Positions 442 to 42,585 of a stretch of DNA of 64,000 nt are shown here, one piece after another (position 1 is the first letter of the stretch; every line of letters starts with the position of its first letter). The notes below the pieces were generated by a model that searched no databases, was not told where the DNA came from, and was given only the letters and a program-made list of their open reading frames with translations. The stretch comes from Nannocystis sp. SCPEA4 (GTDB taxonomy: Bacteria > Myxococcota_A > Polyangia > Nannocystales > Nannocystaceae), in NCBI RefSeq assembly GCF_026626685.1, contig NZ_JAPNJX010000001.1:76752-140751 (forward strand), given 5' to 3'. The position numbers and the translations under genes are program-made.

Positions 442-577
442 TTCATTCGGGCATACAAGACCCCCCCTGCCGATCGAGCGACGCCCTCGTTCGAAGCGAC
501 CACTCCGCCTCACGACAAGCGGGGCCCGCCACACTCTTCTGGGGCGGCCTCGCGGCGGCGGAGTGGGACGCAGCGAG

Positions 578-22781: not shown

Positions 22782-23049
22782 CGACACGCCGGCGAGCCGC
22801 GAAGACGAAGCCGCGCATGCCGAACATGGTTCGCAACCCTGACACCGTCGAACGTCGATCCATTCGCAGGCGCTGACAGGCCGGCGAGCCGCGAAGAAGC
22901 GGCGGCCGTCCAACATCGTTCGCCGCGACACACGAGGCCTCGCGACCCGCTCATGGGCTCGCGCGACGACAGTCGCGCGAACGAAGTCAACCACGCAATT
23001 GTTCTTCGTACAGCTGTCACTTTCTCCTGTCGCCCTCAAGGAGCCGCCG

Positions 23050-24936
23050 ATGTCCGCGCGAACCGAGCCGAATTATGCCCGCTCACTGCTCGTCAACTGC
23101 ATGACCGTCTCGCTCGCCGCGCTGGTCCTCGCGTGCGAGCCCGCCGACGCTGCCGGCGATCCGGGAGCTCTCATCGACGTCGTCATGACCGGCCGCGTCG
23201 GCGTCGTCCTCGACGAGTTCCCCGCGGGCTCGCGCGACCGCGCCGCCGAGCTGTTCCTCGCCAAGCCGCTCGCGTTCTGGGAGGCGCGTGCGCGCCGGCA
23301 GACGCGCATGACCAACTACCGCCTCGCCTTCCGTCAGTTCTTCCACGACGACAAGTTGCAGCTGCCGCTCCCGCCCGACGCCGGCCTTCACTACGAGTTC
23401 GCCGGCGACGGCGCGCGCCGTGACAGCGTCGACGGCCACGACGTCGTCGTCATCGACTACACCCTCACCGGCACTCTCCTCGGCGACGTCGCCTCGATCC
23501 CCGCCTCCGAGCCCGCGCTCGTCGACGTCGGCGGCACCTGGGAGGAGCCCTTCGTCCTCCCGCTCGACCCCGAGTACCTGCGCCAGCGCACCGGCTACGC
23601 CTGCGTCGACGAGGAGGACTTCCCGCCCGACTCCTCGGACGAGGAGAACATCGCCGACTTCTTCGATCACGAGTGCGACGTCGAGGTCGCGCCCGACTAC
23701 GCCTGTCACCTCAGCGAGCCGCGGCCGACCGAGTCGTGCGTCGACGCGCTGCACGACCACGTCGGCGCCGTCGACACCGTCGTCCGCTTCGAGCGGCGCG
23801 CCTGGGATCCGCAGCGCGCCGACGAGGTGCGCCTCGGCGAGGTCACCACCCCCGACGCGCCCGACCTCGCCGTCGTCGGCGACGTCATCGGCAGCTCCGC
23901 CCGCCTCGTCTACCGCTACATCGCCCCCGACAGCTGCACCATGCGCGAGGGCTGCGTCGGCGGGTCCGGCTGGCGCCGCCTGCTGCAGTTCGACGCCAGC
24001 GTGCAGAACGTCGGCGGCGCCGACCTCCACCTCGGTGAGGTCGACTACTACGGCGAGGGCGTCGACGGCGAGCTCGCCGCCCACAACATCTACGAGTACA
24101 GCGACTGCCACCAGCACTATCACTTCCGTTTCTACGGCGACTTCGCCTACGCCACCGACGAGCACGCCGAGGGCTTCAAGCAGTCGTTCTGCCTGCAGAC
24201 CACCTCGCGCGCCGGCAACCACGAGAAGAGCCCGCTCAACACCCCCTACGGCAGCTGCGACTACCAGGGCATCGCCGCCGGCTGGGGCGACGACTACATC
24301 GCCGGCCTCGACTGTCAGTGGGTCGACGTCACCGACGTCGCCGTCCCGGGCGCCTCCGTCACCGCCCCGCTGGTCTTCACCTCCAACCCCGATCGCTTCC
24401 TCTGCGAGGGCGCCCCCGTGCTCGACGACGCCGGCGCCCGCCGCTACGAGCCCACCGACCTCAGGACCGAGACCGGCGCCGCCATCGAGCGGCCCATGTG
24501 CGAGTTCAGCAGCGGCTGGGACGGCAACAACGTCGGCGAGCGTCCGGTCGAGATCCCCGCCGTCGGCAGCTACGTCACCGCCGCCTGCGACCGCGAGCAG
24601 GAGGGCCCGCTGCGCAACTGCGGCTTCGCCGAGCAGACCGCCGCCATCGCCTGCAACGCCGGCGAGACCGTCGAGCTCGGGTGCACGATCCCCGCCGGCG
24701 CCGCGCCTATGGCCGTGCGCGTGTGCCCCGTCAGCGCCGTCCTCGGCGTCCCGCTCGCGTGCACGTACGTCCACGCGCTCGGAACCGGCGTCGTCGACGA
24801 CGGCGCCATGACCACCGTCCGCTTCACCTGCCCCGCCCCGCTCGCCGCCGACGAGCCCGGCGGCGAGGTCTCCCTGTTCACCGCCCCGCTCCTGCGCAGC
24901 GACCCGGGCGTCGAGGTCGCGTGCATGCCGCTGTGA
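23050..24936 (+). CDS. Lysyl oxidase-like copper amine oxidase lipoprotein
   Basis: Lipobox LVLAC. LOX catalytic-domain motifs CHQHYH, GFKQSFCLQTTS (cf. GHKASFCLEDTS) and DCQWVDVTDV (cf. DCQWIDITDV). RBS ggag before the ATG. Confidence 0.75.
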   Translation: MSARTEPNYARSLLVNCMTVSLAALVLACEPADAAGDPGALIDVVMTGRVGVVLDEFPAGSRDRAAELFLAKPLAFWEARARRQTRMTNYRLAFRQFFHDDKLQLPLPPDAGLHYEFAGDGARRDSVDGHDVVVIDYTLTGTLLGDVASIPASEPALVDVGGTWEEPFVLPLDPEYLRQRTGYACVDEEDFPPDSSDEENIADFFDHECDVEVAPDYACHLSEPRPTESCVDALHDHVGAVDTVVRFERRAWDPQRADEVRLGEVTTPDAPDLAVVGDVIGSSARLVYRYIAPDSCTMREGCVGGSGWRRLLQFDASVQNVGGADLHLGEVDYYGEGVDGELAAHNIYEYSDCHQHYHFRFYGDFAYATDEHAEGFKQSFCLQTTSRAGNHEKSPLNTPYGSCDYQGIAAGWGDDYIAGLDCQWVDVTDVAVPGASVTAPLVFTSNPDRFLCEGAPVLDDAGARRYEPTDLRTETGAAIERPMCEFSSGWDGNNVGERPVEIPAVGSYVTAACDREQEGPLRNCGFAEQTAAIACNAGETVELGCTIPAGAAPMAVRVCPVSAVLGVPLACTYVHALGTGVVDDGAMTTVRFTCPAPLAADEPGGEVSLFTAPLLRSDPGVEVACMPL

Positions 24937-27032: not shown

Positions 27033-27857
27033 TCAGCGCGGCAAGAGCCCCGCCGCCTGCCCGCGCGCGCGCAGCTCGGCCAGCGCCGCCGCGCCCTCGG
27101 CCCCCATGTCGCGCGAGAACTGATTGACGTAGAGGGCGATGTGCTGCCGGCACACCTCGTCGCTCAGCTCCTGCGAATGCGCCTTGACGAACGGCCACGC
27201 CGCGGCCGGGTCGGCCTCCGCCGCCGCGATCGAGCGGGCGATCCCCTCCTCGACCGCGCGCACCTGCCAGGCCGGCAGCGAGCGGTGGGCCGCGATCACC
27301 CCGAGCGGCAGCGGCAGCCCCGTGGCCGCCTCCCACACCTCGCCAAGGTCCGCCACCTGCACCAGCCCGTGGTCGCGGAACACGAACCGCGCCTCGTGGA
27401 TCACCAGCCCCGCGTCGACCTCGCCGGCCGCGACCGCCGGCATGATGCGATCGAAGCGCATCGGCACCACCTTCGCCGACGCCGGGGCGAAGCAGCGCAG
27501 CAGCAGGTGCGCCGTCGTGTACGCGCCCGGGATGGCGATCGTCCGTCCCTCGAGCGCCTCGAGCTCGCCCGCCGCGCGCGCGACCACCAGCGGCCCGCAG
27601 CCGCGGCCCAGCGCCGCACCTGTCCGCAAGACCATGTAGTTGTGCTCGACCCAGAACAACCCGTGCGCGCTCAGCTTCGTCACCGGCAGCGGCTCCTCGC
27701 CGGCCAGCGCGCGCTCGTTGAGCGCCTCGATGTCGGCCAGCCACGGCAGCGGCCGCAGCCCCGGCACGAACTCCGGCACGCGCACCAGCGCGTCGAACAT
27801 CCACGTGTCGTTCGGACACGGCGAGAACCCGATCGGCAGCGGTTCGCTCGCGCTCAT
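27033..27857 (-). CDS. mqnD: 1,4-dihydroxy-6-naphthoate synthase (futalosine pathway)
   Basis: MqnA/MqnD periplasmic-binding-like fold family, ~274 aa with conserved N-terminal IGFSPCPNDT. Confidence 0.75.
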   Translation of the reverse strand: MSASEPLPIGFSPCPNDTWMFDALVRVPEFVPGLRPLPWLADIEALNERALAGEEPLPVTKLSAHGLFWVEHNYMVLRTGAALGRGCGPLVVARAAGELEALEGRTIAIPGAYTTAHLLLRCFAPASAKVVPMRFDRIMPAVAAGEVDAGLVIHEARFVFRDHGLVQVADLGEVWEAATGLPLPLGVIAAHRSLPAWQVRAVEEGIARSIAAAEADPAAAWPFVKAHSQELSDEVCRQHIALYVNQFSRDMGAEGAAALAELRARGQAAGLLPR

Positions 27858-28501
27858 CTCATCCCCCAGTTCGCGGCCTCCAGCCGCCTCAACGCCTCTT
27901 GCACCCCGGTCACCGCGCGCGGCAGATCCCAGCCGCCCGCGGCCCGTCGTCCGGTCCGGTTGCTGACGCAGCGCAGCTGGACCCACGGCACGCCCGCGCG
28001 CCCGCACGCCCACGCCACCGCCGCGCCCTCCATCGTCTCGACCGTCGCCCCCGTCAGGGTCGCCAGCTCGCGCGAGCGCGGGTCGGTCCCGCTGCACGCG
28101 CTGACCGTCGCCCCGCGCACGATCGGCGCCCCGAGCACCCGGGCCGCCGCCGCCGAGCGCTCCGCGTCGGCGTGAAACGGCCCGTTCGACCCCAGCCCCA
28201 GCTGCGACAGCGGCAGGAACCCGTCGTCGGTCGCCACCCCCTCGTCGGCGAGCCACTCGTCGCCGACCAGGCACACGTCGCCGACGTCCAGCCTGCCCCC
28301 CGGGCCATGTCCCTCGGGATAGGCGCCGCAGACCCCGAACAGCAGCACCCACGCCGGCCGGCGCTCGTGCAGCGCCGCGGTCATGGCCACCGCCGCGGCC
28401 ACCTTGCCGACGCCGAGGCGCAGCGCCGAGGGCAGCCCGCGGCCCTCGACCTCGGCGGCGCAGACGAGCAGCGGCGGGGTCACGACCACACGATAGCGCA
28501 C
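27854..28501 (-). CDS. mqnB: Futalosine hydrolase (MTA/SAH-nucleosidase family)
   Basis: PNP/MTAN fold motifs (ETMEGAAVAWAC). Probable GTG start. The 4-bp overlap with mqnD points to an operon. Confidence 0.65.
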   Translation of the reverse strand: MRYRVVVTPPLLVCAAEVEGRGLPSALRLGVGKVAAAVAMTAALHERRPAWVLLFGVCGAYPEGHGPGGRLDVGDVCLVGDEWLADEGVATDDGFLPLSQLGLGSNGPFHADAERSAAAARVLGAPIVRGATVSACSGTDPRSRELATLTGATVETMEGAAVAWACGRAGVPWVQLRCVSNRTGRRAAGGWDLPRAVTGVQEALRRLEAANWGMR

Positions 28502-28590
28502 CTCGACGCGCGACCCACCGGTGACGCCCCGACCACCGCGATTCGGGGAGCAATTTCTTAAACGCACGGTCAAACGTCCGCGGCAACTAC

Positions 28591-28606
28591 TTACTCGCGC
28601 GAGTAA
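28591..28606. promoter_or_regulatory. Perfect 16-bp palindrome TTACTCGCGCGAGTAA in the divergent mqnB / lipid-operon promoter region; candidate operator
   Basis: Exact palindrome ~200 bp upstream of the HAD gene start. Confidence 0.3.
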
Positions 28607-28799
28607 ACATCTCGGGCCTTCGCTAGCCTCGCCGCCAAAGCCCGCCGAACGGCCACCAAGGCCTCGTCGCCGCCGATCCTGCGCACCCCGGTGCACGCGT
28701 AAAACGGCGTGCGCAGCGGCCTTCGCAGGCATCTCCGTCAGCTTGGGAATGCTTGTAACGCTGGCCTCGGGTGCGCTAACTAGGCCGCGAGTCTGGTCG

Positions 28800-29477
28800 A
28801 TGACACAAACCAACACGGCAGCATTCGTCCGCGTCGAAGGCATCCTGCTCGCCCGCGGCGTGCTCAGCGCGGCGGCCTACCTGGCCGCCAACGCCAAGAA
28901 GTTCGGCGAGCGGGCGCTGCGCCTCGGCCTCGTCGGTCTGGCCGCTCCGGTCCACCGCTTGCTCGGCCAGACCGACCGCGCGCTGGCCCACCGTCTGGCC
29001 CACCTCGCCATCCGCGGCATGAGCCGCGACCGCGTCGAGGTCCTGTGCGAGGAGTACGCCGAGGATGTCCTGAAGGACACCATCCTCGATCAGGGCCTCG
29101 AGCTGCTCAAGCGGCTGCAGGCCGAGGGACGGCGGGTCGTGCTGCTGTCCGACAGCATCGAGCCGATCATGAAGCCGCTCGCGCGTCACCTCAAGCACTA
29201 CGACGAGCTCGTCTTCAACCACATCGAGTTCGAGGACGACGAGGCGACCGGCAGGCTGCTCGATCCGGTCATCGGCTCCAACGTCGGCGGCCGCTGGCTC
29301 GACGACTACGCGGCCGTGCACAAGCTCGAGCTCGCCCGCTGCTCGGCCTACGGCGCCCACGGCCCCGACATGCTGCTGCTCTCGCGCGTCGGCAAGCCGT
29401 GCGCCGTCAACCCCGACTTCGTCCTGCGCCGCAGCGCCAAGGACGCCGACTGGCCGATCATCGACTATCGCGACTGA
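28800..29477 (+). CDS. HAD-superfamily hydrolase, subfamily IB (phosphatase)
   Basis: HAD-IB architecture; the ORF track shows LLSDSIEPIMKP and a D-rich C-terminal motif. Confidence 0.65.
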   Translation: MTQTNTAAFVRVEGILLARGVLSAAAYLAANAKKFGERALRLGLVGLAAPVHRLLGQTDRALAHRLAHLAIRGMSRDRVEVLCEEYAEDVLKDTILDQGLELLKRLQAEGRRVVLLSDSIEPIMKPLARHLKHYDELVFNHIEFEDDEATGRLLDPVIGSNVGGRWLDDYAAVHKLELARCSAYGAHGPDMLLLSRVGKPCAVNPDFVLRRSAKDADWPIIDYRD

Positions 29478-29505: not shown

Positions 29506-31191
29506 GTGAACACGCCGCTCTCGATCAAGCACTGCTACGCCGGCCGCCACGTCCTGCTCACCGGCGTCACCGGCTTCCTCGGCAAGGTGTGGCTGGCGAT
29601 GGTGCTGCAGCACGTGCCCGAGATCGGCAAGATCTACGTGCTCACCCGCAAGAAGGCGCTGCGCCCGGCGGCCGACCGGTTCGAGCGCCAGGTCCAGACC
29701 TCGCCGTGCTTCCGCCCGCTGCACGAGAAGTACGGCGCCGACATGAGCCGCTTCATCAGCGAGCGGGTCGAGGTCGTCTCCGGCGACGTCTCGCTGCCCG
29801 ACATGGGCGTCGAGGACCCCGAGGTGCTCGCCCGCCTGCGCCGCGACATCGACCTCGTGGTCAACTGCGCCGGCCTCGTCGACTTCGACCCCGACCTGCG
29901 CGACGCCATGACGACCAACGTCGAGGGCGCCCGCAACGCCGCCAACTTCGTCGCCGCCTGCGACAAGGCCGTCCTCCTCCACATCTCGACCTGCTACGTC
30001 ACCGGCAAGAAGAACGGCAAGATCGGGGAGGACATCCGCCCCGACCTCGCGCCCAGCGGCGACGCCTTCGACGTCGAGGCCGAGAGCGCCGACATCCAGA
30101 CCAGCATCGACGCCATCCTCGCCGAGCACGAGTCGCCCGAGATGGACCGGCGCGCCCAGGACGACGCGATCAAGCAGATCCGCGAGAAGGGCGGCGACGA
30201 GAACAACGCGATGCTGGTGCGCAACACCGCCCGCCGGATCAAGCGCAACCTGCTCAAGGACGCGATGGTCGCCGAGGGCCAGCGCCGCGCCGGCCGCTGG
30301 GGCTTCACCAACATCTACACCTTCACCAAGAACATGGCCGAGGCGTGGATCGCCCGCCGCCTCGATCCTGGCCGCTGGGCCATGTTCCGCCCGGCCATCG
30401 TCGAGAGCTCGATGAGCTACCCGTTCCCCGGGTGGAACCAGGGCTTCAACACCTGCGGCCCGCTGAGCTACGCGCTCGGCAGCTGGTTCCGCCACCTGCC
30501 GTGCAAGAAGGGCAACCCCTTCGACATCATCCCGGTCGACTACGTCTGCCGCGGCATGACCGTCGCCGGCGCCGCGCTCATGCGGGGCGAGCACGCGCCC
30601 GTCTACCAGTGCGGCAGCTCCGACCTCAACCTGCTGACCATCGACCGCGCCGTCGAGCTGGTCGCGCTGGCCCACCGCAAGCACCTGCGCACCCGCGGCG
30701 ACACCACCCTCGACCGCGTCGTCAAGTCGCGCTGGGACGCCATCGCCGTCACGCCCGACCACCCGATGCGGATCGAGAACGTGCGCAAGATGACCGAGTC
30801 GGTCGACGAGTGGCTGCGCGACCCGCCGAAGGAGTGGCCGGAGTTCATCCGCCGCCGGCTCACCGACTTCGCCGAGCACACCGAGGACGCGCTCGAGGCG
30901 ATCGACAAGATCGAGCGCATGTGCGAGCTCTACCTGCCGTTCATCCACGACAACCACTTCGCGTTCTACACGCGCAACCTGCTGCGCCACCCCGTGGTCG
31001 AGCCCGAGTGGGACTGCGACCCGCGCAGCATCGACTGGCGCCACTACTGGATCGACGTGCACATCCCCGGGCTGCGCAAGTGGTGCTTCCCGCTGTTCGA
31101 GAACAAGACCCCCGAGAGCTACTCCCCGCGCCACCCCTTCCGCCTGCGCTCGCCCGAGGCCGCGCCCGCGCCCCACGCCGAGGTCGTCTGA
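29506..31191 (+). CDS. Fatty acyl-CoA reductase (alcohol-forming FAR; NAD_binding_4 + FAR_C)
   Basis: [11 protein letters not shown] Rossmann motif, YTFTK catalytic motif, and a C-terminal sterile/FAR_C domain. GTG start with GGAGGA RBS. Confidence 0.85.
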
Positions 31192-31195
31192 CACC

Positions 31196-32341
31196 ATGGC
31201 CATCTTCCTCACCGGAGCCACCGGATACATCGGCTCGTACGTCGCCGCCGGCCTGCTCGACGAGCACCCGAACGAGCGGCTCGCCCTGCTCGTGCGCGCC
31301 AAGGATCCCGCCGAGGCCGAGCAGCGGCTGTGGAAGTCCATGCAGCTGCACATGGACTTCCCGCGCTTCCTCGACCTCGTCCGCACCCGCTGCGACCTCT
31401 ACCTCGGCGACCTGACCTTCCCCGGCCTCGGCCTCGAGGCCGGCGCGCGCGAGAAGCTGGTCCGCACCATGGACTCGGTCATCCACTGCGCCGCGTCGCT
31501 CAACCGCAAGTCGTCGAAGGCCTGCTTCAACGTCAACCTGCGCGGCACCCTGAGCGTCCTCAAGCTCGCGCGCGACGCCCAGGACCAGCACGGCCTGCGC
31601 CGCTTCACCGACATCAGCACGGTCGCGGTCTCCGGCGAGCGCAAGAGCGAGGTCGTCACCGAGGACAACACCGTCGACTGGGACAAGTCCGACTACGACC
31701 CGTACGCGCGGACCAAGAAGTTCTGCGAGCACATGCTGCACGAGCTCCTGCCCGACGTCCCGGGCCTCGTGCTGCGGCCCTCGATCGTCCTCGGCGACAG
31801 CCGCTTCCCCGAGACCACCCAGTTCGACATGGTGCGGGCGTTCGTCATGCTCGCCAAGCTGCCGATCTTGCCGTTCCACCCCGACTGGCGGCTCGACATC
31901 GTCCCGGTCGACTACGTCGCCAAGGCGATCGTCACCCTGCACCAGCGCGACAAGCTGCCGCACGACGCCTACAGCCTCAGCTCCGGCACCGCCTCGCTCA
32001 CCTACCGCCAGGTCGTCGACGCCATGCGGCGCGCCGGCCACCCGGTCAAGCACCGCTTCGTCCCCGGCCTCAACGGCGCGTTCAACCGCGTCGTCGAGAC
32101 CGCCTCCAACACCCCGCGCAACTGGGGCGTCTCGCTCCCGGCCTCGCTGCTCAAGGTGTTCCTGCCCTACCTCACCTTCGACACCGTGTTCGACAACCGC
32201 CGGGTCGTCGACGCCCTCGGCGAGGCGCCCGCCTCGTTCGATCGCTACGCCTACGGGCTCTACCGCTTCGCGGTCGACCACAACTTCAGCTACCCGTACA
32301 AGCCCTGGCCCGGCGGCGCGCAGGTGCGGCAGGTGGCCTAG
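31196..32341 (+). CDS. NAD(P)-binding reductase of the NAD_binding_4 / thioester-reductase type
   Basis: LTGATGYIG and YARTK motifs; 381 aa; lacks the FAR_C domain. Confidence 0.7.
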
Positions 32342-32351
32342 CCCTTCGAAC

Positions 32352-33833
32352 ATGTCCAAGAGCGCACCCGTCAAGAAGACCACCAGCAAGATCTGGGACA
32401 AGGTCAAGGAGGTCGTCGACCCCGACCGCGCCCTCCAGGCCACCGTCGCCGCCGCGATCGAGGGCGTCGCCGTGCGCCACGTGCTCGGCATGTCGCCGGA
32501 GACGTGGAAGCCGGGCAAGCCGCTCAAGCTGCTGCTGGCCGGCTACGTCGGCACGCGCAACACCGGCGCCGACGTCCGCGTCGAGGAGATGATCCGCCAG
32601 CTGCGCCACGTCGTCGGCGACGACGACCTCGAGCTGACGATCATGACCGTCGATCCCAAGCTGACGCGCGGCTACTTCCGCGCCGTCCACCAGATCGAGC
32701 TGCCGGCGGTGTTCCCCAAGTTCATCGCCCAGGAGTGCCCCAAGCACCACGGCGTCATCGCTTGCGAGGGCTCGATGTTCAAGTCGAAGTTCTCGAGCGC
32801 GCTGACCTGCTTCATGGCCGGCTCGCTCGGCCTCGCCAACGCCGAGAACAAGATCAGCGTCGGCTACGGCGCCGAGGCCGGCAGCATGACCCCGGGGCTG
32901 CGTGACTTCGTGCGCGACGCCTGCAAGAAGTCGCTGGTCATCTGCCGCAACGAGCCCTCGCGCCAGGTCCTGGGCGAGCTCGGGATCCGCACCACCTCCG
33001 GGGCCGACACCGCCTGGACCTTCGATCCCGCGCCGCTGTCGCGCGGCGCTCAGCTGCTGCGCGAGGCCGGCTGGGACGGCCGCCAGAAGGTCCTGGTCGT
33101 CTGCCCGATCAACCCGTTCTGGTGGCCGGTCAAGCCCGACCTGCTCAAGTACGCCGCCTACAAGCTCGGCGGTCAGTACAAGCACGAGCACTACAGCGCC
33201 TTCTACTTCCACCACCACAGCGAGGCGGCGGAGAAGAAGTACAACAACTACATCCAGGCCCTGGCCGACGGCGTCAACGCCTTCGCGCAGGAGCGCGAGT
33301 TCTTCACCATCCTCGTCGGCATGGAGCAGCTCGACCGCCACGCCTGCGAGGACCTGCAGCCGCGACTCGACCGCGGCGGCGTGCTGTTCGTCAGCGACGA
33401 GCACGACATGTTCGACCTCGTCAGCGTGCTGCGCAATTGCAGCATGATGGTGAGCTCTCGCTTCCACGCGATCGTCACCTCGATGCCGGGCCTCGTGCCC
33501 TCGGCCGGCGTCACCATGGACGAGCGGATCCGTAACCTCATGAACGATCGCGGCCATCCGGACATGTTCTTCGAGGTCGACGAGGACGACCTCGGCGAGA
33601 AGCTGCTGCACACCCTGCGCCGGCTGTGGCGCGACGCCGACGGCATCAGCGCCGACATCGCCCGCGCCGTCCCGGCCCAGCTCAAGCTCATGGGCCAGAT
33701 GGGCATCGACTTCATGGACGAGGTCGTGCGCGTCTATCCCCAGTTCCCGCGGCGCGACCTCCCGCGCACCTGGGACGCTCACCTGCCGCCGCTGCCGGCC
33801 AACGTGCAGCGCCTGCTGGAGCGCCACGCATGA
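32352..33833 (+). CDS. Polysaccharide pyruvyl transferase-family protein (CsaB/WcaK-like fold)
   Basis: N-terminal LKLLLAGYVGTRNTGADVRVEEMIRQLR and C-terminal SSRFHAIVTSMPGLVPS motifs. The ATG sits inside a GAACATGTCC motif. Confidence 0.6.
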   Translation: MSKSAPVKKTTSKIWDKVKEVVDPDRALQATVAAAIEGVAVRHVLGMSPETWKPGKPLKLLLAGYVGTRNTGADVRVEEMIRQLRHVVGDDDLELTIMTVDPKLTRGYFRAVHQIELPAVFPKFIAQECPKHHGVIACEGSMFKSKFSSALTCFMAGSLGLANAENKISVGYGAEAGSMTPGLRDFVRDACKKSLVICRNEPSRQVLGELGIRTTSGADTAWTFDPAPLSRGAQLLREAGWDGRQKVLVVCPINPFWWPVKPDLLKYAAYKLGGQYKHEHYSAFYFHHHSEAAEKKYNNYIQALADGVNAFAQEREFFTILVGMEQLDRHACEDLQPRLDRGGVLFVSDEHDMFDLVSVLRNCSMMVSSRFHAIVTSMPGLVPSAGVTMDERIRNLMNDRGHPDMFFEVDEDDLGEKLLHTLRRLWRDADGISADIARAVPAQLKLMGQMGIDFMDEVVRVYPQFPRRDLPRTWDAHLPPLPANVQRLLERHA

Positions 33834-35464
33834 GCGACAACTTCCTCGACGTCATCCACGCCGCGGTCCAGAAGACCCGCGAGGATCACCTGCTCATCGA
33901 GCTCCACGGCAAGGAGCGGCGCCCGACCTCGGCCGCGCAGCTGCTGCACCTCGTCGCCCACGCGCGCGGCTTCCTCCGCCGCGCCGGCGTCAAGCCCGGC
34001 GACCGCGTCGCCCTGCTCGCCCCCAACTCCGCGCGGTGGGTCGCGGCTGACCTTTCGATCCTGTTCGAAGGTGCGATCGTCGTCCCCCTCTACAGCCGCC
34101 AGGACCCGCGCGAGCTGGCCGTCATGGTCAAGGACTGCAGCCCGGTGCTCGTCATCGCCGACGGCCCCGAGCTCGCCGCCGGCCTGCGCGGCGCCTGGCC
34201 CGAGCACTGCCCAATCGAGGACCTGCGCGACGTCCTCCGCGGCGATCCGGTGCACGAGCCGCCGCGCCCGGTCGCGCCCGCCGATCCGGTCACGATCATC
34301 TACACCTCCGGCACCAGCGGCGAGCCCAAGGGCGTCGTCCTCACCCGCGCCAACGTCGACTACATGCTGCCGCAGACCCGCAGCAGCGTCGACAAGATCA
34401 CCGGCGGGCAGCGGGCCGACAAGGTGTTCCACTTCCTGCCGTTCTGCTTCGCCGGCTCGCGCATCATGCTGTGGACGCAGCTGTACCGCGGCAACCCGCT
34501 GCTGCTGTCGACCGACCTGCAGAACCTCGTCGCCGAGATGGGCGCCGCCGATCCGCACTACTACCTCAACGTCCCCGCCGTGCTCGAGCGGATCAAGAAC
34601 GGCGTCGGCAAGAAGATCGCGGAGCGCGGCGGCGTCGCCCTCGCCCTCTACCAGCGCGGCCAGGCCGCCTTCCGCCGCCAGCGCGAAGGCAAAGCTGGCC
34701 TTGCGGACAGGCTCACCCTCGCCCTCGCCAAGAGGCTCGTCTTCAGCAAGATCAAGCAGCAGGTCGGGCCCAGCCTCGAGTTCCTGATCTGCGGCTCGGC
34801 CGCGCTCGCCGAAGAGACCCAGTGGTGGTTCGAGCTGATCGGCGTGCAGGTCTACCAGGTCTACGGCCTGACCGAGACCACCGCGATCGTCACCATGGAC
34901 ACCCCCGGCGGCGTGCGCCCCGGCTACGTCGGCCACGCCATCGGCGGCTGCGAGCTCAAGCTCAGCGACGAGGGCGAGCTGCTGGTGCGCGGCCCGGGCA
35001 TCTTCGCCGGCTACTGGAAGCGCGAGCAGGCCACCGCCGAGGCCATCCGCGACGGCTGGTTCCACACCGGCGACCAGTGCGAGCTCGACCACACCGGCAA
35101 CCTGCGGATCATCGGTCGCGTCAAGAACATCCTCGTCCCCGAGTCGGGCCACAACATCGCCCCCGAGCCGATCGAGGAGAAGTTCATGACCGCCTGTCCG
35201 CGCGCCGAGCAGTGCATGCTCGTCGGCCACGCGCGCCCCTTCCTCGGCATCATCGTCCCTGGCGACGTCCCGAAGGAGGACATCGACGCCGCGCTCGAGG
35301 TCGTCAACGCCAGCGTCCCGCACTACAAGAAGATCCGCGCCTTCATCCGCGTCGCCGACCCGTTCACCATCGAGAACGGCCTCCTCACCGCCAACCAGAA
35401 GCTGCGGCGCCGCGCCGTCGAGCAGCGCTACCGCGCCGAGATCGACAGGGCCTACGCGTCATGA
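33830..35464 (+). CDS. Long-chain acyl-CoA synthetase (AMP-dependent ligase)
   Basis: YTSGTSGEPKG, YGLTET and GWFHTGD motifs. Start overlaps the upstream stop (ATGA). Confidence 0.85.
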   Translation: MSDNFLDVIHAAVQKTREDHLLIELHGKERRPTSAAQLLHLVAHARGFLRRAGVKPGDRVALLAPNSARWVAADLSILFEGAIVVPLYSRQDPRELAVMVKDCSPVLVIADGPELAAGLRGAWPEHCPIEDLRDVLRGDPVHEPPRPVAPADPVTIIYTSGTSGEPKGVVLTRANVDYMLPQTRSSVDKITGGQRADKVFHFLPFCFAGSRIMLWTQLYRGNPLLLSTDLQNLVAEMGAADPHYYLNVPAVLERIKNGVGKKIAERGGVALALYQRGQAAFRRQREGKAGLADRLTLALAKRLVFSKIKQQVGPSLEFLICGSAALAEETQWWFELIGVQVYQVYGLTETTAIVTMDTPGGVRPGYVGHAIGGCELKLSDEGELLVRGPGIFAGYWKREQATAEAIRDGWFHTGDQCELDHTGNLRIIGRVKNILVPESGHNIAPEPIEEKFMTACPRAEQCMLVGHARPFLGIIVPGDVPKEDIDAALEVVNASVPHYKKIRAFIRVADPFTIENGLLTANQKLRRRAVEQRYRAEIDRAYAS

Positions 35465-36234
35465 TCGACTGGACCTACGACAGCGGCGTCTACGAGCTCA
35501 CCCTCGCCACGCCGCCCTGCAACGAGATCGGCACGGCGATGCTCGCCGATCTGCGCCGCTTCATCGACCAGATCGATCGCGACGCCCACACCCTCATCCT
35601 CCGCAGCGGCCTGCGCCAGGGCTTCTGCGCCGGCGCCGACCTGCGCGAGCTCTACCGCGGCCTGTGCGACGCCCCCGCCGAGCAGCACGGCCCGCAGATC
35701 CGCAAGTTCATCGACGAGATCCACGGCGTCATGGACGACCTCGACATGCTGCCGCTGACCACCGTCGGCGTCGTCCACGGCGTCTGCTTCGGCGGCGGCT
35801 TCGAGCTCGCGCTCACCTGCGACGTCCTGATCGCCGAGAAGTCGGCCCGCTTCTGCTTCCCCGAGCTGCGCCTCGGCATCATCCCCGGCTTCGGCGGGAT
35901 CCCGCGCCTGCGCCGCGACGTCGGCAACGGCCTCATCCGCGACCTCCTGCTCAGCGGCCGCAGCATCAACGCCAAGAAGGCCCAGGCCGCCGGCCTCGTC
36001 AGCCAGGTCGTCGCCGGCGGCGAGGGCATCACCGCCGCGCGCGCCCTCGCGGCCCAGACCGCCAAGTTCGATCCGACGGCGCGCAAGGCCGCCAAGGCCT
36101 TCATCAAGAAGCTCCCGACCGACGAGCTCGTCGCCGAGCGCGAGCTGTTCGTCCGCCTGGCCCAGGGACCCGCGCTGCTGGCCGCCCTCAAGCGCTTCGT
36201 CGAATCCACCGACCTGCGGCCCTACCTGCCATGA
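35461..36234 (+). CDS. Enoyl-CoA hydratase/isomerase (crotonase fold)
   Basis: Crotonase motifs GFCAGADL and GGGFELALTCD. ATGA overlap with the upstream gene. Confidence 0.85.
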   Translation: MIDWTYDSGVYELTLATPPCNEIGTAMLADLRRFIDQIDRDAHTLILRSGLRQGFCAGADLRELYRGLCDAPAEQHGPQIRKFIDEIHGVMDDLDMLPLTTVGVVHGVCFGGGFELALTCDVLIAEKSARFCFPELRLGIIPGFGGIPRLRRDVGNGLIRDLLLSGRSINAKKAQAAGLVSQVVAGGEGITAARALAAQTAKFDPTARKAAKAFIKKLPTDELVAERELFVRLAQGPALLAALKRFVESTDLRPYLP

Positions 36235-36261
36235 GCCTCCTCGTTCCACACCAGCGCGGAG

Positions 36262-36597
36262 CCTCGAGCTGCGACGCATCTCTTGTTCCGCATTGGCGCG
36301 GGACCTCGAGCTGCGACTCGTCTCTTGTTTCGCGCGGGCGCGGGGCCTCGAGCTGCGACACATCTCTTGGTCCGCATTGGCGCGGGGCCTCGAGCTGCGA
36401 CGCATCTCTTGGTCCGCATTGGCGCGGGGCCTCGAGCTGCGACGCATCTCTTGGTCCGCATTGGCGCGGGGCCTCGAGCTGCGACGCATCTCTTGGTCCG
36501 CATTGGCGCGGAACCTCGAGCTGCGGCTCGTCTCTTGTTCCGCGCCGGTGCGGGGCCTCGAGCTGCGCCTCGTCTCTTGTTCCGCGCTGGCGCGGGG
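36262..36597. repeat. 42-bp minisatellite x8 (cctcgagctgcgacgcatctcttggtccgcattggcgcgggg), non-coding
   Basis: Eight head-to-tail units, the central four identical. The periodic ORFs on both strands are repeat artefacts. Confidence 0.8.
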
Positions 36598-36879
36598 CCA
36601 CGGAGACCCGGGGGGGTCGGCCCGGGCGCGGCGGAGCGGGTCCCTCGCTACGCGAGACCTGCCATGCCAGGTGCTCGCCGGCGATGTTTTGCTCTCCGCT
36701 TTCCGAAGGTTCTCTCGCCGTCTGCGCGCCAGGCATGGGGCCCCTCGCTGCGTCCCACTCCGCCGCGCCCGGGCCGACCCAGAAGATCCTCGAGCGGCCC
36801 CGCTCATCCCCGCGCGGCTGTCCCTTCGGTCCTGCTTCCAGGAACCTGTCTGAACGAGCAGGAGTGACGCTCTCCGTCT

Positions 36880-37560
36880 CTCGACAAGCGGTACCCCTCA
36901 CGCCCTCCGTTCTCTCGTTCGAAGCGACCATCTCCGCCTCACGACAAGCAGGGCCCGCCACGACCTCCTCGCGCGAAGCGACCATCTCCGCCTCACGACA
37001 AGCGGGGCCCGCCACTGCCTCCGCTCTCTCGCTCGAAGCGACCATCTCCGCCTCACGGCAAGCGGGGCCCGCCACGGCCTCCGCTCTCTCGCGCGAAGCG
37101 GTCATCTCCGCCTCACGACAAGCGGGGCCCACCACAATCTTCTGGGGCGGCCTCGCGGCGGCGGAGTGGGACGCAGCGAGGGGCCCCATGCCTCACGCGC
37201 AGACGCGGGATCAATCCTCGGACATGCCCCATCGCCCTTCCGCGTCGAGCATGTGGCATGGCAGGTCTCGCGTCGCGAGGGACCCGCTCCGCCGCCGCGA
37301 GGCCGCCCCTCCCCGCTCCCCACGGCCCCGCGTCTCCGCACACGCGATTCCCGATGCCTCTCGCCTGAGCCGCTCCCCACGGCCCCGCGTCCCCGCGCAC
37401 GCGATCCGAGACGACTCTCGCCTGAGCCGCTCCTCACGGCCCCGCGTCCCCGCGCACGTGCTCTTCGACGCGTCTCGCCCGAGCCGCCCGAGCAGCCCCG
37501 CGTCCGAGCACGCCTGATTCCCGTCCCGACAGCAGAAGCCCGCAGAACATTGAGAGCAAA
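36880..37560. repeat. Dispersed composite repeat, copy B: ~60-bp unit x4.5 (36885-37140), shared core (37100-37330), second ~58-bp unit x3 (37330-37500)
   Basis: ~95% identity to 505-577 plus 1888-2050. Both tandem blocks are collapsed to one unit in copy A. Contains the GGACATGCCCCAT motif. Confidence 0.75.
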
Positions 37561-37564
37561 TCCG

Positions 37565-37798
37565 ATGAGCGACACTCTCGACACACTCATCCGTCTCGCC
37601 GCCAAGCGCTTCGGCGCCGATCCGGCCAAGCTCCGCGCCGAGGACGACCTGTTCGAGCGCCTGGGCATCGACAGTTTTCAGGCCGTCGAGCTCATCTCGG
37701 ACGTCGAGGACGAGTTCGACGTCGAGCTGCCCGACTACGAGCTTCAGGGGATCAAGACCTTCGCTGCTCTGGCGCAGAAGATCGACGCGAGGCGCTAG
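37565..37798 (+). CDS. Acyl carrier protein
   Basis: 77 aa; LGIDSFQAVEL phosphopantetheine-attachment motif. Confidence 0.85.
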   Translation: MSDTLDTLIRLAAKRFGADPAKLRAEDDLFERLGIDSFQAVELISDVEDEFDVELPDYELQGIKTFAALAQKIDARR

Positions 37799-39514
37799 AT
37801 GCTCGACCTGGGAAAGCTGTCCTGCCTGGGCGAGGCGCTGCGTGACGCCACCATCACGTACAAGAGCCGCGTCGCGCTGATCGAGGCCGATCGGCACCGC
37901 GAGAATTCGCGCCACACCTTCGCCGAGCTGCGGGCGCAGGCCGAGCGGTTCGGGGCTGGCCTGCAGGTTCACGGGTTCGGACCTGGCGATCGCTGTGCGA
38001 TCGTCATGCAGAATCAGTCGAAGTGGCTCATCGGCGCCACCGGGGCCTTGTGGGCCGGCGCCGTCCTCGTCCCCATCGACTACAAGTTGACCGCGCCCGA
38101 GCAGCACGCCTTGCTCGCGCACTGTCGGCCGCGGGTCGTGCTCGCGGAGTGGCCGGCGTGGGACAAGCTGCAGCGCGAGGATCCCTCGATCTTCGAGCGC
38201 ACCCTCGTCATCGTCACCGAGGCGCCCGACGGGGCCAACATCGGCCGGGCGCTGCGCTGGGAGGACCTGCCCCAGGGGTCAGGTTTCACCTTTCACGCGC
38301 GAGCGCGCGAGGACGTCGCCTGCATCGTCTACTCCTCGGGCACCGGCGGAGCGGCCAAGGGTTGCCAGCTCTCGCACGCCAACTACATGGCGCAGGCCGA
38401 GACGCTCGGCAACCTCTACCCGCTGAGCGAGGGTGATCGATACTTCTCGATCCTCCCGACCAACCACGCCATCGACTTCATGTGCGGCTTCTTGCTCGCG
38501 CTGATGATGGGCGGCGCCGTCGTCCACCAGCGGACCTTGAGGCCGGCCTATCTGGCCAGCACCATGAAGCGATACGGCATCACGCACATGGCGCTGGTGC
38601 CGACGATCCTCAAGACCCTCGAGAAGAAGATCAAGGACAAGATCGCCGAGCTGCCGAAGTGGCAGCGGCTCGTGCTCGACGGGCTCATGGACATCAACGA
38701 GTACGCCACCCGGCAGGCGCCGAACCACGGGCTGAGCAAGACCTTGCTGGCCCCGATCCACGAGTATTTCGGCGGCAAGCTGCGGCTCATGTTCTGCGGC
38801 GGCGCCTTCGTCGACCGCCAGAGCGCCGAGTACTTCAACCGGCTCGGGCTGCCGGTCGTCATCGGCTACGGCCTCACCGAGGCCGGCACCGTCCTCACCG
38901 TCAACGACCTCAAGCCGTTCCGCGGCGACAGCGTCGGCAAGGCGGTCGAGGGCACCGAGATCGAGCTGCGCGACGTCAACGAGAGCGGCGTCGGCGAGGT
39001 GTGGGTGCGGGGCCCCACCGTCATGTTGGGTTATCTCGACGCGCCCGAGCTGACGCGCGAGGCGATCGTCGATGGTTGGCTGCGGACCGGCGACCTCGGC
39101 ACCATGGACGCTGCCGGGCACCTCAAGCTGCTCGGTCGCACCAAGAACATGATCGTCACCGAGGGCGGCAAGAACGTCTATCCGGAGGACATCGAGGCCG
39201 CCTTCGGCGACATCGACGACTGCGAGGAGTTCTGCGTGTTCGCGGCCAACTTCATCTGGCCGACCGGCAAGATGACCGACGAGCAGCTGATCGTCGTCGT
39301 GCGGCCCAAGGCCGGGCTCGACGAGGCCGCGCGGGCCGACGTCATCGACGCCTTCCGCAAGCGCAACCGCCAGCTCGCCGACTACAAGCGGATCTCCGCC
39401 TACGTCCTGTGGGAGCGCGAGTTCCCGCGCACCGCCTCGCAGAAGATCAAGCGCGACCCTCTCGCCCGCGAGCTCAAGCCGCTCGGCCGCGCCCTCGCCC
39501 TGCGCGAGCTGTAA
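37799..39514 (+). CDS. AMP-dependent synthetase/ligase (acyl-ACP/acyl-CoA synthetase)
   Basis: YSSGTGGAAKG, GYGLTE and GWLRTGD motifs. ATG overlaps the ACP stop. Confidence 0.85.
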   Translation: MLDLGKLSCLGEALRDATITYKSRVALIEADRHRENSRHTFAELRAQAERFGAGLQVHGFGPGDRCAIVMQNQSKWLIGATGALWAGAVLVPIDYKLTAPEQHALLAHCRPRVVLAEWPAWDKLQREDPSIFERTLVIVTEAPDGANIGRALRWEDLPQGSGFTFHARAREDVACIVYSSGTGGAAKGCQLSHANYMAQAETLGNLYPLSEGDRYFSILPTNHAIDFMCGFLLALMMGGAVVHQRTLRPAYLASTMKRYGITHMALVPTILKTLEKKIKDKIAELPKWQRLVLDGLMDINEYATRQAPNHGLSKTLLAPIHEYFGGKLRLMFCGGAFVDRQSAEYFNRLGLPVVIGYGLTEAGTVLTVNDLKPFRGDSVGKAVEGTEIELRDVNESGVGEVWVRGPTVMLGYLDAPELTREAIVDGWLRTGDLGTMDAAGHLKLLGRTKNMIVTEGGKNVYPEDIEAAFGDIDDCEEFCVFAANFIWPTGKMTDEQLIVVVRPKAGLDEAARADVIDAFRKRNRQLADYKRISAYVLWEREFPRTASQKIKRDPLARELKPLGRALALREL

Positions 39515-39544: not shown

Positions 39545-40453
39545 ATGCACGATCCGGCCGCACTCCTCGCAGTCGTCAATCCAGCCGCCGGCGGCGGCGT
39601 GTGCGGCAAGCGGGCTCCCGCGGCCGTCGAGCGGCTGCGGCAGTCGGGCGTCAAGGTCGACGTCGTCGAGACGAGGGCGCCCGGTCAGGCCACCGACGTC
39701 GCGCGCGAGGCCGTCGCCGCCGGGCGGCGCCACTTCATCGCCGTCGGCGGCGACGGCACCAGCTACGAGCTCATCAACGGTATCTTCTCCGGCGCCTTGC
39801 CCGCGGGCGAGCGGCCCTCGCTCGGCATGCTGCCTCTCGGGACAGGCAACTCCTTCCTGCGCGACTTCACCGACCAGGGCGCCGAGTACGCGATCGAGGC
39901 CATCATCGCCGGCAAGACGCGCCCGTGCGACCTCATCCGCTGCACCCACACGCGCGGCGCCCTGCACTTCATCAACATCTTCAGCATCGGTTTCGTCGCC
40001 GACGTCGGCGCCACCCGCAACCGCAGCTTCTCCGGCCTGGGCGAGTTCGGCTACACCCTGAGCACCGTGCTGCGGGTCGCCGCGCTGCGGCCGTACACCT
40101 TCCCGATGCAGATCGACGGTCAGCCCGAGGATCGGGAGCCGCTGACCTTCCTCTCGTTCAACAACAGCCGCTTCACCGGCGGCAAGATGATGATGGCGCC
40201 CGACGCCAACACGCGCGACGGTCTGCTCGACATCATCCGTGTCGGCCGCCTGGGCCGCGTCGGGCTGCTGCGCACCTTCCCGAAGATCTTCAGCGGCACC
40301 CACGTGCAGCACCCGGCCGTGCGCTGCTATCAGGCCCCTGGCCTCGACCTCCGCCTCGCCGACGACATCGACGTGATGGTCGACGGCGAGATGATCAAGA
40401 TCAACCCGCGGCGGCTGGAGGTCGTCCCGGCCGCGCTCGATGTCCGGACGTGA
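39545..40453 (+). CDS. Lipid kinase of the diacylglycerol-kinase catalytic-domain family (YegS/BmrU-like)
   Basis: GGDGT motif, DAGK_cat fold, ~300 aa. Confidence 0.8.
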   Translation: MHDPAALLAVVNPAAGGGVCGKRAPAAVERLRQSGVKVDVVETRAPGQATDVAREAVAAGRRHFIAVGGDGTSYELINGIFSGALPAGERPSLGMLPLGTGNSFLRDFTDQGAEYAIEAIIAGKTRPCDLIRCTHTRGALHFINIFSIGFVADVGATRNRSFSGLGEFGYTLSTVLRVAALRPYTFPMQIDGQPEDREPLTFLSFNNSRFTGGKMMMAPDANTRDGLLDIIRVGRLGRVGLLRTFPKIFSGTHVQHPAVRCYQAPGLDLRLADDIDVMVDGEMIKINPRRLEVVPAALDVRT

Positions 40454-41253: not shown

Positions 41254-41568
41254 TCGTCAGCGGACCGCCCCGGTCGTCGATCGGGGTCGGTCGATCCTCC
41301 GTCTGCATCTCGCGGCGGTGAGCATGTGGGCCCGGGTGTCATCGCTGCCGCGGCGCCCATCACTCGCCGGCAACCGCAGTGAGATCGTTGCGAGTTTCTT
41401 TGCAGGTGCACGCCGCGTCGATCCTGGTGTGTGTCACGGACGCACGAATGCGAGCGCGTACGTGACCGGACAATCGTAACGCCGGACGCTTGCATCCGGA
41501 TCGCAACCTCCTCGCTTGCGCTCCACAATGACCTCGATCATGCAGTTCGGTCAGGAGATGATGAGCTC

Positions 41569-42585
41569 ATGACTCGTGGGATCTGCCTTCTGCTCATCGG
41601 TTCGGTGGTGGCCTGTGATGTCGTCGAGAACGACGACGGAACAGCGATTACGGTACGCAACGACGAAGACAACGGCATCGCGTTGAATACCGCGCAGCTC
41701 AACGGCTGGAACCTCAACGGTATGCGCATGAACGGCACCGCCCTCAACGGCATGCGCATGAACGGCTGGAACCTCAACGGGTGGAACCTCAACGGCATCA
41801 GCCTGGTCGGCAGCAGTTTCTCTGCCACCCACGACGTCGACGGCACGCCCGTGCCCGTCAGCGGCGACGACCTGATCGGTTCGGTGCTCACGCTCGAGGG
41901 CGGCGGCACCACCTTCGTCCTGCGCTTCGACGACATCTATCTCGACCCGGCCGACCCGAACGGCGACGTGTGGTTCTACGACATCGCCGTCCAGGACAAC
42001 GAGACCAGCCTGTGGTCGAGCCTCTGCAACGACCACAACGGGCAGCCGACCCAGGCGATCGCCATCGCCAACTGGTGGAACCCCACCACCGGCGCGCGGG
42101 TCGACGATCCCACGGCGGTGACGTTCGCCTGCCGCGACGCCGTGCTGGCCAAGTGTGTCGAGTGGGGCTACCGCCCGTGGGCCACCGTCGGCGGCGTCGG
42201 GCTCGCCGATCACCACCAGACGTGCACGCGGCTGGCCCGTGCCGACTACTGCGGCGACGGCACCCCGCACACCTTCACCGGCACGCCGATCGACGTGTTC
42301 GACGCGCTCAGCCCGGCGATCCAGAGCCCGGCCACGCTCGAGCGGCAGAACTGGGGCATCGAGGCCGAGTGGGGCCCGAACGGCGCTGTGTGCATCGGCG
42401 ACCAGCTGCGCCTCAAGATGTACGACGACAACGGCGTGCCCTACGACTTCCCGGGCTGCTTCGACGCCCTCGACGACATCAGCGGCTGCGGCGACTTCGA
42501 CAGCAGCCGCGGTGCCCTCCTCGCCGACCGCTACTGCGACGTGTGGGAGAGCGACCCGGGCGCCTGCGCGGCCGCCACGTACTAG
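41569..42585 (+). CDS. Lipoprotein with pentapeptide repeats (NLNGW/RMNGT x7) and Cys-containing C-terminal domain
   Basis: Lipobox IGSVVAC, five-residue tandem repeats, and an AGGAG RBS. Confidence 0.6.
   Translation: MTRGICLLLIGSVVACDVVENDDGTAITVRNDEDNGIALNTAQLNGWNLNGMRMNGTALNGMRMNGWNLNGWNLNGISLVGSSFSATHDVDGTPVPVSGDDLIGSVLTLEGGGTTFVLRFDDIYLDPADPNGDVWFYDIAVQDNETSLWSSLCNDHNGQPTQAIAIANWWNPTTGARVDDPTAVTFACRDAVLAKCVEWGYRPWATVGGVGLADHHQTCTRLARADYCGDGTPHTFTGTPIDVFDALSPAIQSPATLERQNWGIEAEWGPNGAVCIGDQLRLKMYDDNGVPYDFPGCFDALDDISGCGDFDSSRGALLADRYCDVWESDPGACAAATY

Follow-up and report, generated by a model that had tools for sequence, protein, structure and literature searches.

A PF04230-family putative (enol)pyruvyl transferase encoded within a conserved ten-gene lipid operon of Nannocystis sp. 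SCPEA4

A 64,000-nucleotide stretch of the Nannocystis sp. SCPEA4 genome (contig NZ_JAPNJX010000001.1, positions 76,752 to 140,751; here called the window) was analyzed around an open reading frame (ORF) at window positions 32352 to 33833, which comes from this Nannocystis species and encodes a protein of the PF04230 pyruvyl transferase family, here called PT. The acceptor of PT is most likely a lipid and not a polysaccharide, and PT is most likely the central enzyme of a ten-gene operon. PT probably uses phosphoenolpyruvate (PEP) as the donor and a reductase-made long-chain lipid alcohol as the acceptor, with a product that feeds the acyl-CoA-synthetase-like enzyme encoded directly downstream. 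The evidence consists of the candidate PEP-binding residues, the gene order around PT and its homologs, fusions between PT and its neighbors, and the closeness of PT to an MgpK-type member of a clade of lipid-tail transferases.

Family membership and candidate PEP-binding site of PT

The PT ORF opens with an ATG and is genuinely coding, since its third-position GC content in its own frame is between 0.90 and 0.99. Identity to the ortholog is 96% in N. exedens DSM 71 and 95% in N. pusilla (95 to 96% across three Nannocystis genomes). The Pfam profile PF04230 (PS_pyruv_trans) matched residues 160 to 378 with a score of 44.3 bits (E = 2.7e-11), above the curated cutoff of 25.3 bits, which places PT in this superfamily; PF04230 is also found in the precomputed annotation of most PT homologs. 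The CsaB model TIGR03609 matched residues 59 to 405 with 72.8 bits (E = 2.9e-20; equivalog cutoff, 213.1 bits), and the WcaK model NF007452 reached 18.3 bits (cutoff, 399 bits). Because both scores fall far under the equivalog cutoffs, PT is, as judged from these profiles, a member of the superfamily but not an ortholog of the sugar-modifying enzymes. PT was found to have a GT-B (glycosyltransferase B-type) fold with two Rossmann-like domains, and no profile assigned another fold; the pyruvyl transferase family and the GT-B fold that a first-pass annotation had read from the sequence were thus borne out. Sequence searches of the PDB returned chance matches only for the PT protein and its profile and none for WcaK. 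PT matched no GT4-type (PimA or BshA) sequence family (Glycos_transf_1 or similar) and no Pfam glycosyltransferase.

Alignment of PT with Escherichia coli WcaK (hhalign) placed R199 at the arginine of LRES, D219-T-A-W at DTAW, R370 and H372 at the arginine and histidine of GTRLHS, and R392 at the lysine 20 residues past that histidine. The same spacing of +20 from histidine to basic residue separates H308 and K328 of CsaB, with lysine replaced by arginine in PT, a correspondence to CsaB that is indirect. In CsaB, R148, R306, H308, and K328 bind PEP and are required for activity (PMC10435577); the PEP-binding set of Pvg1p used in the comparison was R217, R337, H339, and K361. At its acceptor site, CsaB has two aromatic residues, Y14 and F16. 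Among 25 PT family members, down to 26% identity, R199, H372, R392, D219, N70, and R76 were invariant, and R370, E139, W222, and N254 were at least 90% conserved. The four candidate PEP-binding residues (R199, R370, H372, and R392), whose conservation the first-pass annotation had named as a check, were therefore both aligned and conserved. PEP is the most economical assumption for the donor because these residues match the CsaB set and are conserved. PT thus shares with CsaB, WcaK, Pvg1p, and PssM the PF04230 domain, the GT-B fold, and the PEP-implicated pattern of Arg, Arg-x-His, and Lys or Arg; it differs from CsaB and WcaK in its subcutoff scores and in the absence of a polysaccharide gene context. 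PT family members also carry an insertion of about 45 residues (approximately 254 to 300, PINPFWWPVKPD...EHY...FHH), which is absent from WcaK and plausibly forms an alkyl-binding element.

By sequence, PT is far closer to an MgpK-type member of the superfamily than to WcaK. The identity between PT and P0282, the transferase of a cluster resembling the megapolipeptin (mgp) cluster, with polyunsaturated fatty acid (PUFA) synthase, polyketide synthase (PKS), and nonribosomal peptide synthetase (NRPS) genes (locus L090), was 37% with 2 gaps over 436 aa (E = 5e-109), versus 24% over only 63 residues for PT and WcaK. The architecture of L090 is that of the published mgp cluster (PfaA/PfaBC/PfaD plus an acyl carrier protein [ACP], a MenD-like protein, and KS-AT-T-aminotransferase-C). 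The comparison with the clade of lipid-tail transferases was made through P0282, and DxpH, MgpK, and CplI themselves were set beside PT by published description. With PEP in vitro, DxpH (= ChtnH) of Chitinimonas koreensis was reported in 2026 to turn a 1,3-diol of a lipid tail into a pyruvyl ketal (PMC12964715, PMC13291983), a CplI mutant of Collimonas showed a loss of 70.005 Da (PMC8313283), and in megapolipeptin, C2 of 2-hydroxy-4-oxoheptanedioate is bonded to the omega-1 oxygen of the lipid (PMC11411415). Pyruvyl transferases acting on lipid hydroxyls are therefore already known, if very recently (DxpH/ChtnH, MgpK, and CplI were described from 2020 to 2026). The lipid setting of PT, which had been called unexpected in the first-pass annotation, is real and conserved but is less unprecedented than was supposed, given this sister clade.

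DxpH resembles PT in being a PF04230-type protein, and it uses PEP and acts on alkyl-chain hydroxyls and not on sugar, as is predicted for PT. Its gene is surrounded by genes for lipid and PKS enzymes. Its similarity to MgpK has been reported as 72.5%, and it is an MgpK-type protein that is 37% identical to PT. DxpH tailors a lipopeptide antibiotic after assembly, in clusters of the Burkholderiales type that include PUFA synthase and NRPS, whereas PT is encoded in Myxococcota and Acidobacteriota in a compact operon of reductase, adenylating enzyme, hydratase, ACP, kinase, and acyltransferase genes, with other partners and other fusions. For MgpK and MgpL of Paraburkholderia megapolitana (PMC11411415), homology to PT is clear via P0282, and the family-specific PINPFWWPV insertion is shared. 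The MgpK product has a lipid alcohol oxygen at C2 of a PEP-derived acid and a nucleophile at the beta-carbon, which parallels the pairing of PT with a hydratase. The partners differ: MgpL is a MenD-type thiamine pyrophosphate (TPP) enzyme (a TPP lyase, SEPHCHC-synthase-like) that would bring a carbon nucleophile, whereas the adenylating enzyme and hydratase here would bring water. The MgpK reaction is a published proposal, with a phospho-donor other than PEP. The megapolipeptin linkage would be expected if the enolpyruvyl ether of a lipid alcohol, or PEP itself, took the succinic-semialdehyde anion at the beta-carbon.

Distant clade members (26 to 38% identity, with the same insertion) adjoin MenD-type TPP enzymes in three loci, where these enzymes exceed the TIGR00173 cutoff; two of the three loci sit within NRPS or PUFA/PKS clusters. 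The pairs of transferase and MenD-type (SEPHCHC-synthase-like) genes are located at positions 9001 to 12197 of L088, 7232 to 10446 of L089, and 9001 to 12221 of L090, and they come from Massilia aurea, an NRPS cluster, and the mgp-like PUFA/PKS/NRPS cluster. This recurrence suggests that the two enzymes form a module for building a C7 keto-diacid onto the hydroxyl of a lipid.

Operon structure, conservation, and gene fusions

Operon genes were called from frame-specific third-position GC content, Pfam and NCBIfam profiles, and tblastn with an annotated locus (L001) from a metagenome-assembled genome (MAG). The ten genes, all on the plus strand, are as follows.

28800 to 29477, plus strand: HAD-IB family hydrolase (HAD); PF12710, E = 1.6e-17; orthologous to the L001 HAD gene
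29506 to 31191, plus strand: fatty acyl-CoA/ACP reductase (FAR), 561 aa; PF07993, E = 3e-49
31196 to 32341, plus strand: stand-alone thioester reductase (TR; NAD_binding_4), 381 aa; PF07993, E = 1.3e-44; TIGR01746, E = 9e-41
32352 to 33833, plus strand: PT, 493 aa; PF04230-family, GT-B-fold, putative PEP-dependent (enol)pyruvyl transferase
33830 to 35464, plus strand: long-chain acyl-CoA-synthetase-like adenylating enzyme (ACS1), 544 aa; PF00501, E = 2.4e-60, and PF23562; FadD11-like
35461 to 36234, plus strand: enoyl-CoA hydratase (ECH; crotonase); PF00378, E = 3.6e-37
37562 to 37798, plus strand: ACP, 78 aa; PF00550, E = 1.9e-13; DSF phosphopantetheine site; tblastn match to the L001 ACP
37799 to 39514, plus strand: second adenylating enzyme (ACS2), 571 aa; PF00501, E = 9e-71; by synteny, always adjoining ACP
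39545 to 40453, plus strand: YegS/diacylglycerol-kinase-type lipid kinase; TIGR00147, 151.5 bits (cutoff, 118.65); PF00781 and PF19279
40440 to 41321, plus strand: PlsC-type acyltransferase homolog; homology to the L001 and L045 acyltransferases

The first-pass annotation's placement of PT between a reductase and an acyl-CoA synthetase was confirmed at the nucleotide level: the TR stop codon (TAG, 32339 to 32341) ends 10 nt upstream of the PT ATG, and the PT stop codon (TGA) overlaps the ACS1 start codon (ATGA, 33830 to 33833). Adjacent genes in the operon overlap or are separated by 0 to 30 nt, except that ECH and ACP are held apart by a repeat insertion of 1.3 kb. Scans for promoters and terminators within the operon did no better than on shuffled sequence, and one terminator-like hairpin follows the last gene (41375 to 41392). 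The HAD ORF opens at 28521, homology to its orthologs begins near 28800, and its TIGR01490 score (65.4 bits) is under the cutoff of 98.3 bits. The C-terminal "Sterile" domain of FAR is weak (PF03015, E = 5.5e-4, below threshold). Both catalytic glutamate motifs of ECH (GGxxE and PExxhG) were present in 56 of 56 orthologs, and ACS2 is likely an acyl-ACP synthetase. The acyltransferase copy in the window had no Pfam match even at E ≤ 1; its identity is 69% to the L001 gene carrying PF01553 and 32% to the L045 acyltransferase, which itself matches PF01553 (E = 1.8e-21), and the terminal acyltransferase of the window may be divergent. No acyl-CoA dehydrogenase, nucleotide-sugar, or cytidylyltransferase genes were found in the cluster, nor were PKS, NRPS, or PUFA-synthase genes found in the cluster of the window. 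Scans of the window ORFs and related loci revealed no glycosyltransferase, flippase, or polymerase gene near PT.

The PT family is large: more than 7,400 database proteins match at E ≤ 1e-3, and 1,492 clusters at 50% identity were counted, of which 270 reach E ≤ 1e-30. With one genome scanned for each species, at least 590 species had a relative. Conservation is unusually high, with a mean column identity of 71% among 22 members from different lineages, and median identities across the cluster were 53% for PT, 58% for TR, and 56% for ECH. Synteny was counted in the best 80 loci. The conserved order is HAD-FAR-TR-PT-ACS1-ECH-ACP-ACS2-lipid kinase-acyltransferase. TR immediately precedes PT in 64 of the 71 loci with enough flanking sequence, ACS1 or ECH immediately follows it in 52 of 64, and 34 of 46 loci carry HAD, FAR, TR, ECH, ACS2, and the lipid kinase together on one strand, so the possibility raised in the first-pass annotation that the gene would be missing from otherwise conserved versions of the operon was not realized. 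These 80 loci belong to Nannocystaceae, Polyangiales, Sandaracinaceae, Bradymonadia, Bdellovibrionota, Terriglobia, and Blastocatellia. An acyltransferase follows the kinase in many of them, Acidobacteria included, and glycosyltransferases are absent from the cluster in all of the approximately 80 loci. The gene order of a Myxococcales MAG is the same as that of the window. Variation was also found. In a Planctomycetes MAG, separate from the best 80 loci, the genes from PT through the acyltransferase are present and HAD, FAR, and TR are absent upstream; some loci (L010 and others) have a permease and unannotated ORFs between PT and ACS1; solitary PT copies occur beside unrelated neighbors (L028); and the distant homologs P0190, in an archaeal-looking context, and P0254 had no informative neighbors. 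No description of this operon type was found in the literature searched.

Fusions link three pairs of the operon's genes. HAD and FAR form a single ORF in 31 acidobacterial loci; this fusion protein is approximately 817 aa long (HAD, NAD_binding_4, and Sterile domains; e.g., L045, 6427 to 8880). FAR and PT are fused in P0300, a protein of 1,014 aa (NAD_binding_4, Sterile, and PT) in a Pseudobacteriovorax MAG; it occurs on 5 contigs and lies in a minimal cluster (L085) of FAR-PT, ECH, ACP, and ACS2. PT and an ACS1-like enzyme are fused in P0172 of L087 (967 aa) and are in frame with each other in L021. L087 (553 to 9478) is a low-GC variant cluster with the PT-ACS1 fusion, TR, a 240-aa multipass membrane protein, and a short-chain ketoreductase; it also has a carboxylic-acid-reductase-like A-R protein, and the hydratase is absent. 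The chain of fusions from HAD through FAR and PT to ACS1 argues that PT would act directly on the product of the reductase and pass its own product to ACS1. On this comparative evidence, the FAR-PT and PT-ACS1 fusions favor a long-chain alcohol made by the reductase as the putative PT acceptor, and ACS1 would take the carboxylate that PT transfers as its substrate.

Flanking genes, the start-codon motif, and repeats

The genes flanking the operon are unrelated to polysaccharide synthesis. Two minus-strand genes upstream (VitK2_biosynth and PNP_UDP_1; 27033 to 28843) resemble the futalosine pathway of menaquinone synthesis, a lysyl-oxidase-domain protein is encoded farther upstream (22999 to 24936, plus strand), and an ADYC-domain protein is encoded downstream (41431 to 42585). 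Two sequence features touch the operon itself.

32348 to 32357, plus strand: GAACATGTCC motif enclosing the PT start codon; a one-mismatch variant of the palindrome GGACATGTCC
36235 to 37561, no strand assigned: noncoding repeat-rich insertion of approximately 1.3 kb between ECH and ACP, in this strain only

The PT start codon does lie inside a sequence motif, as the first-pass annotation had stated. The exact GAACATGTCC 10-mer occurs twice in the window, the second copy being at 33560 on the minus strand, inside the PT gene, and the context of the PT start is identical in three Nannocystis genomes and is not kept in more distant orthologs. A role for GAACATGTCC as a regulatory element of PT was rejected on these two grounds, and because the start context is unconserved outside Nannocystis, it is probably by chance that the motif encloses the start codon. 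The perfect palindrome GGACATGTCC has 7 copies in the window, compared to 0.07 expected from shuffled sequence (positions 421, 2120, 14942, 16764, 26000, 26867, and 26955), mostly intergenic or near gene ends. The copies at 421 and 2120 are the centers of perfect or near-perfect hairpins of 32 to 34 nt, and those at 26867 and 26955 are inside a direct repeat of approximately 35 nt. GGACATGTCC could serve as a terminator or as a binding site for a protein, or it could belong to a repeat element.

In N. exedens, N. pusilla, and strain RBIL2, the insertion is absent and ECH and ACP are separated by 3 nt. The insertion contains tandem repeats (a 42-nt unit repeated 8.2 times at 36254 to 36599, a 60-nt unit repeated 4.5 times at 36871 to 37135, and a 57-nt unit repeated 3.4 times at 37313 to 37505) and long inverted repeats (36584 to 36800 versus 37124 to 37339, approximately 80% complementary). 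Parts of it (37088 to 37366) recur at window positions 486 to 577 and 1886 to 2070, with matches of 188 nt at 94.7% identity and 93 nt at 92% identity, and these other copies adjoin GGACATGTCC hairpins. The recurrence indicates a putative dispersed repeat family, possibly a nonautonomous mobile element.

Predicted reaction, alternatives, and implications

From these observations we infer the PT acceptor, an enol ether outcome, and each step that would follow. An acyl thioester would be provided by ACS2 and ACP or by the cellular acyl-CoA pool and would be reduced by FAR to a long-chain alcohol. On PT, the alcohol hydroxyl would attack PEP, with loss of phosphate and formation of a C-O bond to C2. 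Ketal closure is not possible with a lone fatty alcohol, so the predicted product is an O-alkyl enolpyruvate (2-alkoxyacrylate). ACS1 would then turn the new carboxylate into a CoA thioester, ECH would add water at the beta-carbon, and TR would reduce the thioester to yield 2-O-alkylglycerol, which would be phosphorylated by the lipid kinase and acylated by the PlsC-type acyltransferase; the HAD phosphatase could take off the phosphate. Addition-elimination on PEP that yields the enolpyruvyl ether of an alcohol is the reaction of MurA and EPSP synthase; their chemistry is analogous to that proposed for PT, and since their fold and family are unrelated, the analogy is mechanistic only.

The core of this proposal, in which PT uses PEP, acts on a lipid alcohol from the reductase, and passes its product to ACS1, is considered probable, and the full route from enol ether to alkylglycerol is put forward tentatively, as somewhat doubtful. 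This route would use each gene once, roughly in gene order. It would need no acyl-CoA dehydrogenase, and a hydratase gene in a cluster lacking one fits the route because the PEP-derived enol ether would supply the enoyl substrate. It would also parallel the logic of the pairs of transferase and MenD-type enzyme. Three of the encoded enzymes, the lipid kinase, the PlsC-type acyltransferase, and the HAD hydrolase, are of the glycerolipid type, and their presence suggests synthesis of a glycerol-like backbone. A more speculative and rather unlikely extension is that PT family members form the ether bond in an undescribed aerobic pathway for glycerol ether lipids, the backbone of which would be built from PEP on a fatty alcohol.

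Biochemical precedent would favor a different product. FAR or TR might make a 1,3-diol from a 3-hydroxyacyl thioester (formed by the hydratase, or by the ketoreductase in variant clusters), on which PT would install a PEP-derived pyruvate ketal (1,3-dioxane-2-carboxylate); the pyruvylated lipid so formed would be anionic and may undergo further processing by ACS1. In vitro, DxpH, from the related clade, forms such a ketal with PEP (PMC12964715) and is the only biochemical precedent; the loss of 70.005 Da in CplI mutants (PMC8313283) and the presence of two reductases in the operon are consistent with a ketal, the FAR-PT fusion fits it equally well, and L087 has a ketoreductase where other clusters have ECH, either of which can generate a beta-hydroxyl. 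Ketal formation would consume both hydroxyls, however, leaving the kinase, the PlsC-type acyltransferase, and the HAD phosphatase without obvious substrates. The cluster also lacks an acyl-CoA dehydrogenase to form an enoyl substrate, 3-hydroxyacyl-ACP from fatty acid synthesis would make ECH needless, and the order PT-ACS1-ECH puts the hydratase after PT and not before it. With these points set against the precedent, a ketal product is judged unlikely, if worth serious consideration.

Readings in which PT has a polar acceptor or another donor fare less well. The first-pass annotation had suggested a glycerol or glycolipid head group as the acceptor, in which case PT would pyruvylate the glycerol of a glycerolipid or the sugar of a glycolipid made elsewhere and the operon would supply the hydrophobic part. 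The acceptors of classical PF04230 enzymes are indeed polar groups with vicinal or 1,3 hydroxyls (PMC6801904), and the kinase, acyltransferase, and HAD genes indicate glycerolipid assembly, but the FAR-PT and PT-ACS1 fusions link PT to early acyl processing, the minimal cluster L085 has no head-group enzymes, and no glycosyltransferase belongs to the cluster; a head-group acceptor is not favored and is considered quite improbable. Similarly improbable is use of the GT-B scaffold with a nucleotide sugar, CDP-glycerol, or a 2-phospho-acid as the donor, such as the 1,5-dicarboxy-3-oxopentyl phosphate proposed for MgpK. Against such donors stand the lack of a Pfam glycosyltransferase match, the invariant or nearly invariant Arg...Arg-x-His...Arg set matching the CsaB and Pvg1p PEP site, and the lack of nucleotide-sugar and cytidylyltransferase genes. 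Database names of PT homologs, such as "polysaccharide pyruvyl transferase WcaK-like protein," would suit an ordinary exopolysaccharide or cell wall enzyme that came to lie in a lipid operon by chance. Coincidence of this kind is extremely unlikely and is effectively refuted by synteny, with the linkage kept across at least 4 phyla; the fusions with FAR and ACS1, the subcutoff CsaB and WcaK scores, the short and low-identity WcaK match, and the absence of polysaccharide genes nearby argue in the same direction.

In domain repertoire, the operon resembles a disaggregated form of the elbABCDE ether-lipid operon of Myxococcus xanthus (Lorenzen et al. 2014, reviewed in PMC9131029), which belongs to the same phylum as Nannocystis. 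Both have NAD-dependent reductases, an adenylating enzyme, ACP, and a PlsC-type acyltransferase, and the HAD-IB hydrolase is a candidate counterpart of ElbB. ElbD combines reductase, adenylation, ACP, and acyltransferase domains in one polypeptide, whereas here, as in each of the 80 loci, the four functions are encoded by individual genes. Descriptions of elb list no hydratase, lipid kinase, or pyruvyl transferase, and ElbC (MXAN_1529) is described as being of "unknown function"; three homolog searches, one of them seeded with a divergent myxobacterial member, returned no Myxococcia among their best matches, and PT is not equated with ElbC here. The ceramide-phosphoglycerate pathway of Caulobacter, which is alike in its lipid kinase, ACP, and acyl-ACP synthetase, was considered and rejected, as it uses a cytidylyltransferase and its papers mention no pyruvyl transferase. 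An aminotransferase gene upstream of the acidobacterial L045 locus occurs in only 2 loci, which also counts against that reading.

If PT acts on a lipid alcohol as proposed, a large conserved family now named "polysaccharide pyruvyl transferase" would become a family of lipid-metabolic enzymes, and a ten-gene operon common to Myxococcota, Bdellovibrionota, Acidobacteriota, and others would be defined. Pyruvylation of lipid tails, which was shown in 2026 for antibiotic lipopeptides, would extend to what appears to be membrane or storage lipid metabolism. These phyla are those in which aerobic ether lipids and lipids of the branched glycerol dialkyl glycerol tetraether (brGDGT) type occur. Should the PEP-based route hold, it would provide for sn-2 alkyl ethers in Myxococcota and Acidobacteriota and would be a candidate source of the unexplained second ether bond in bacterial dialkyl glycerol and branched tetraether (brGDGT-type) lipids.

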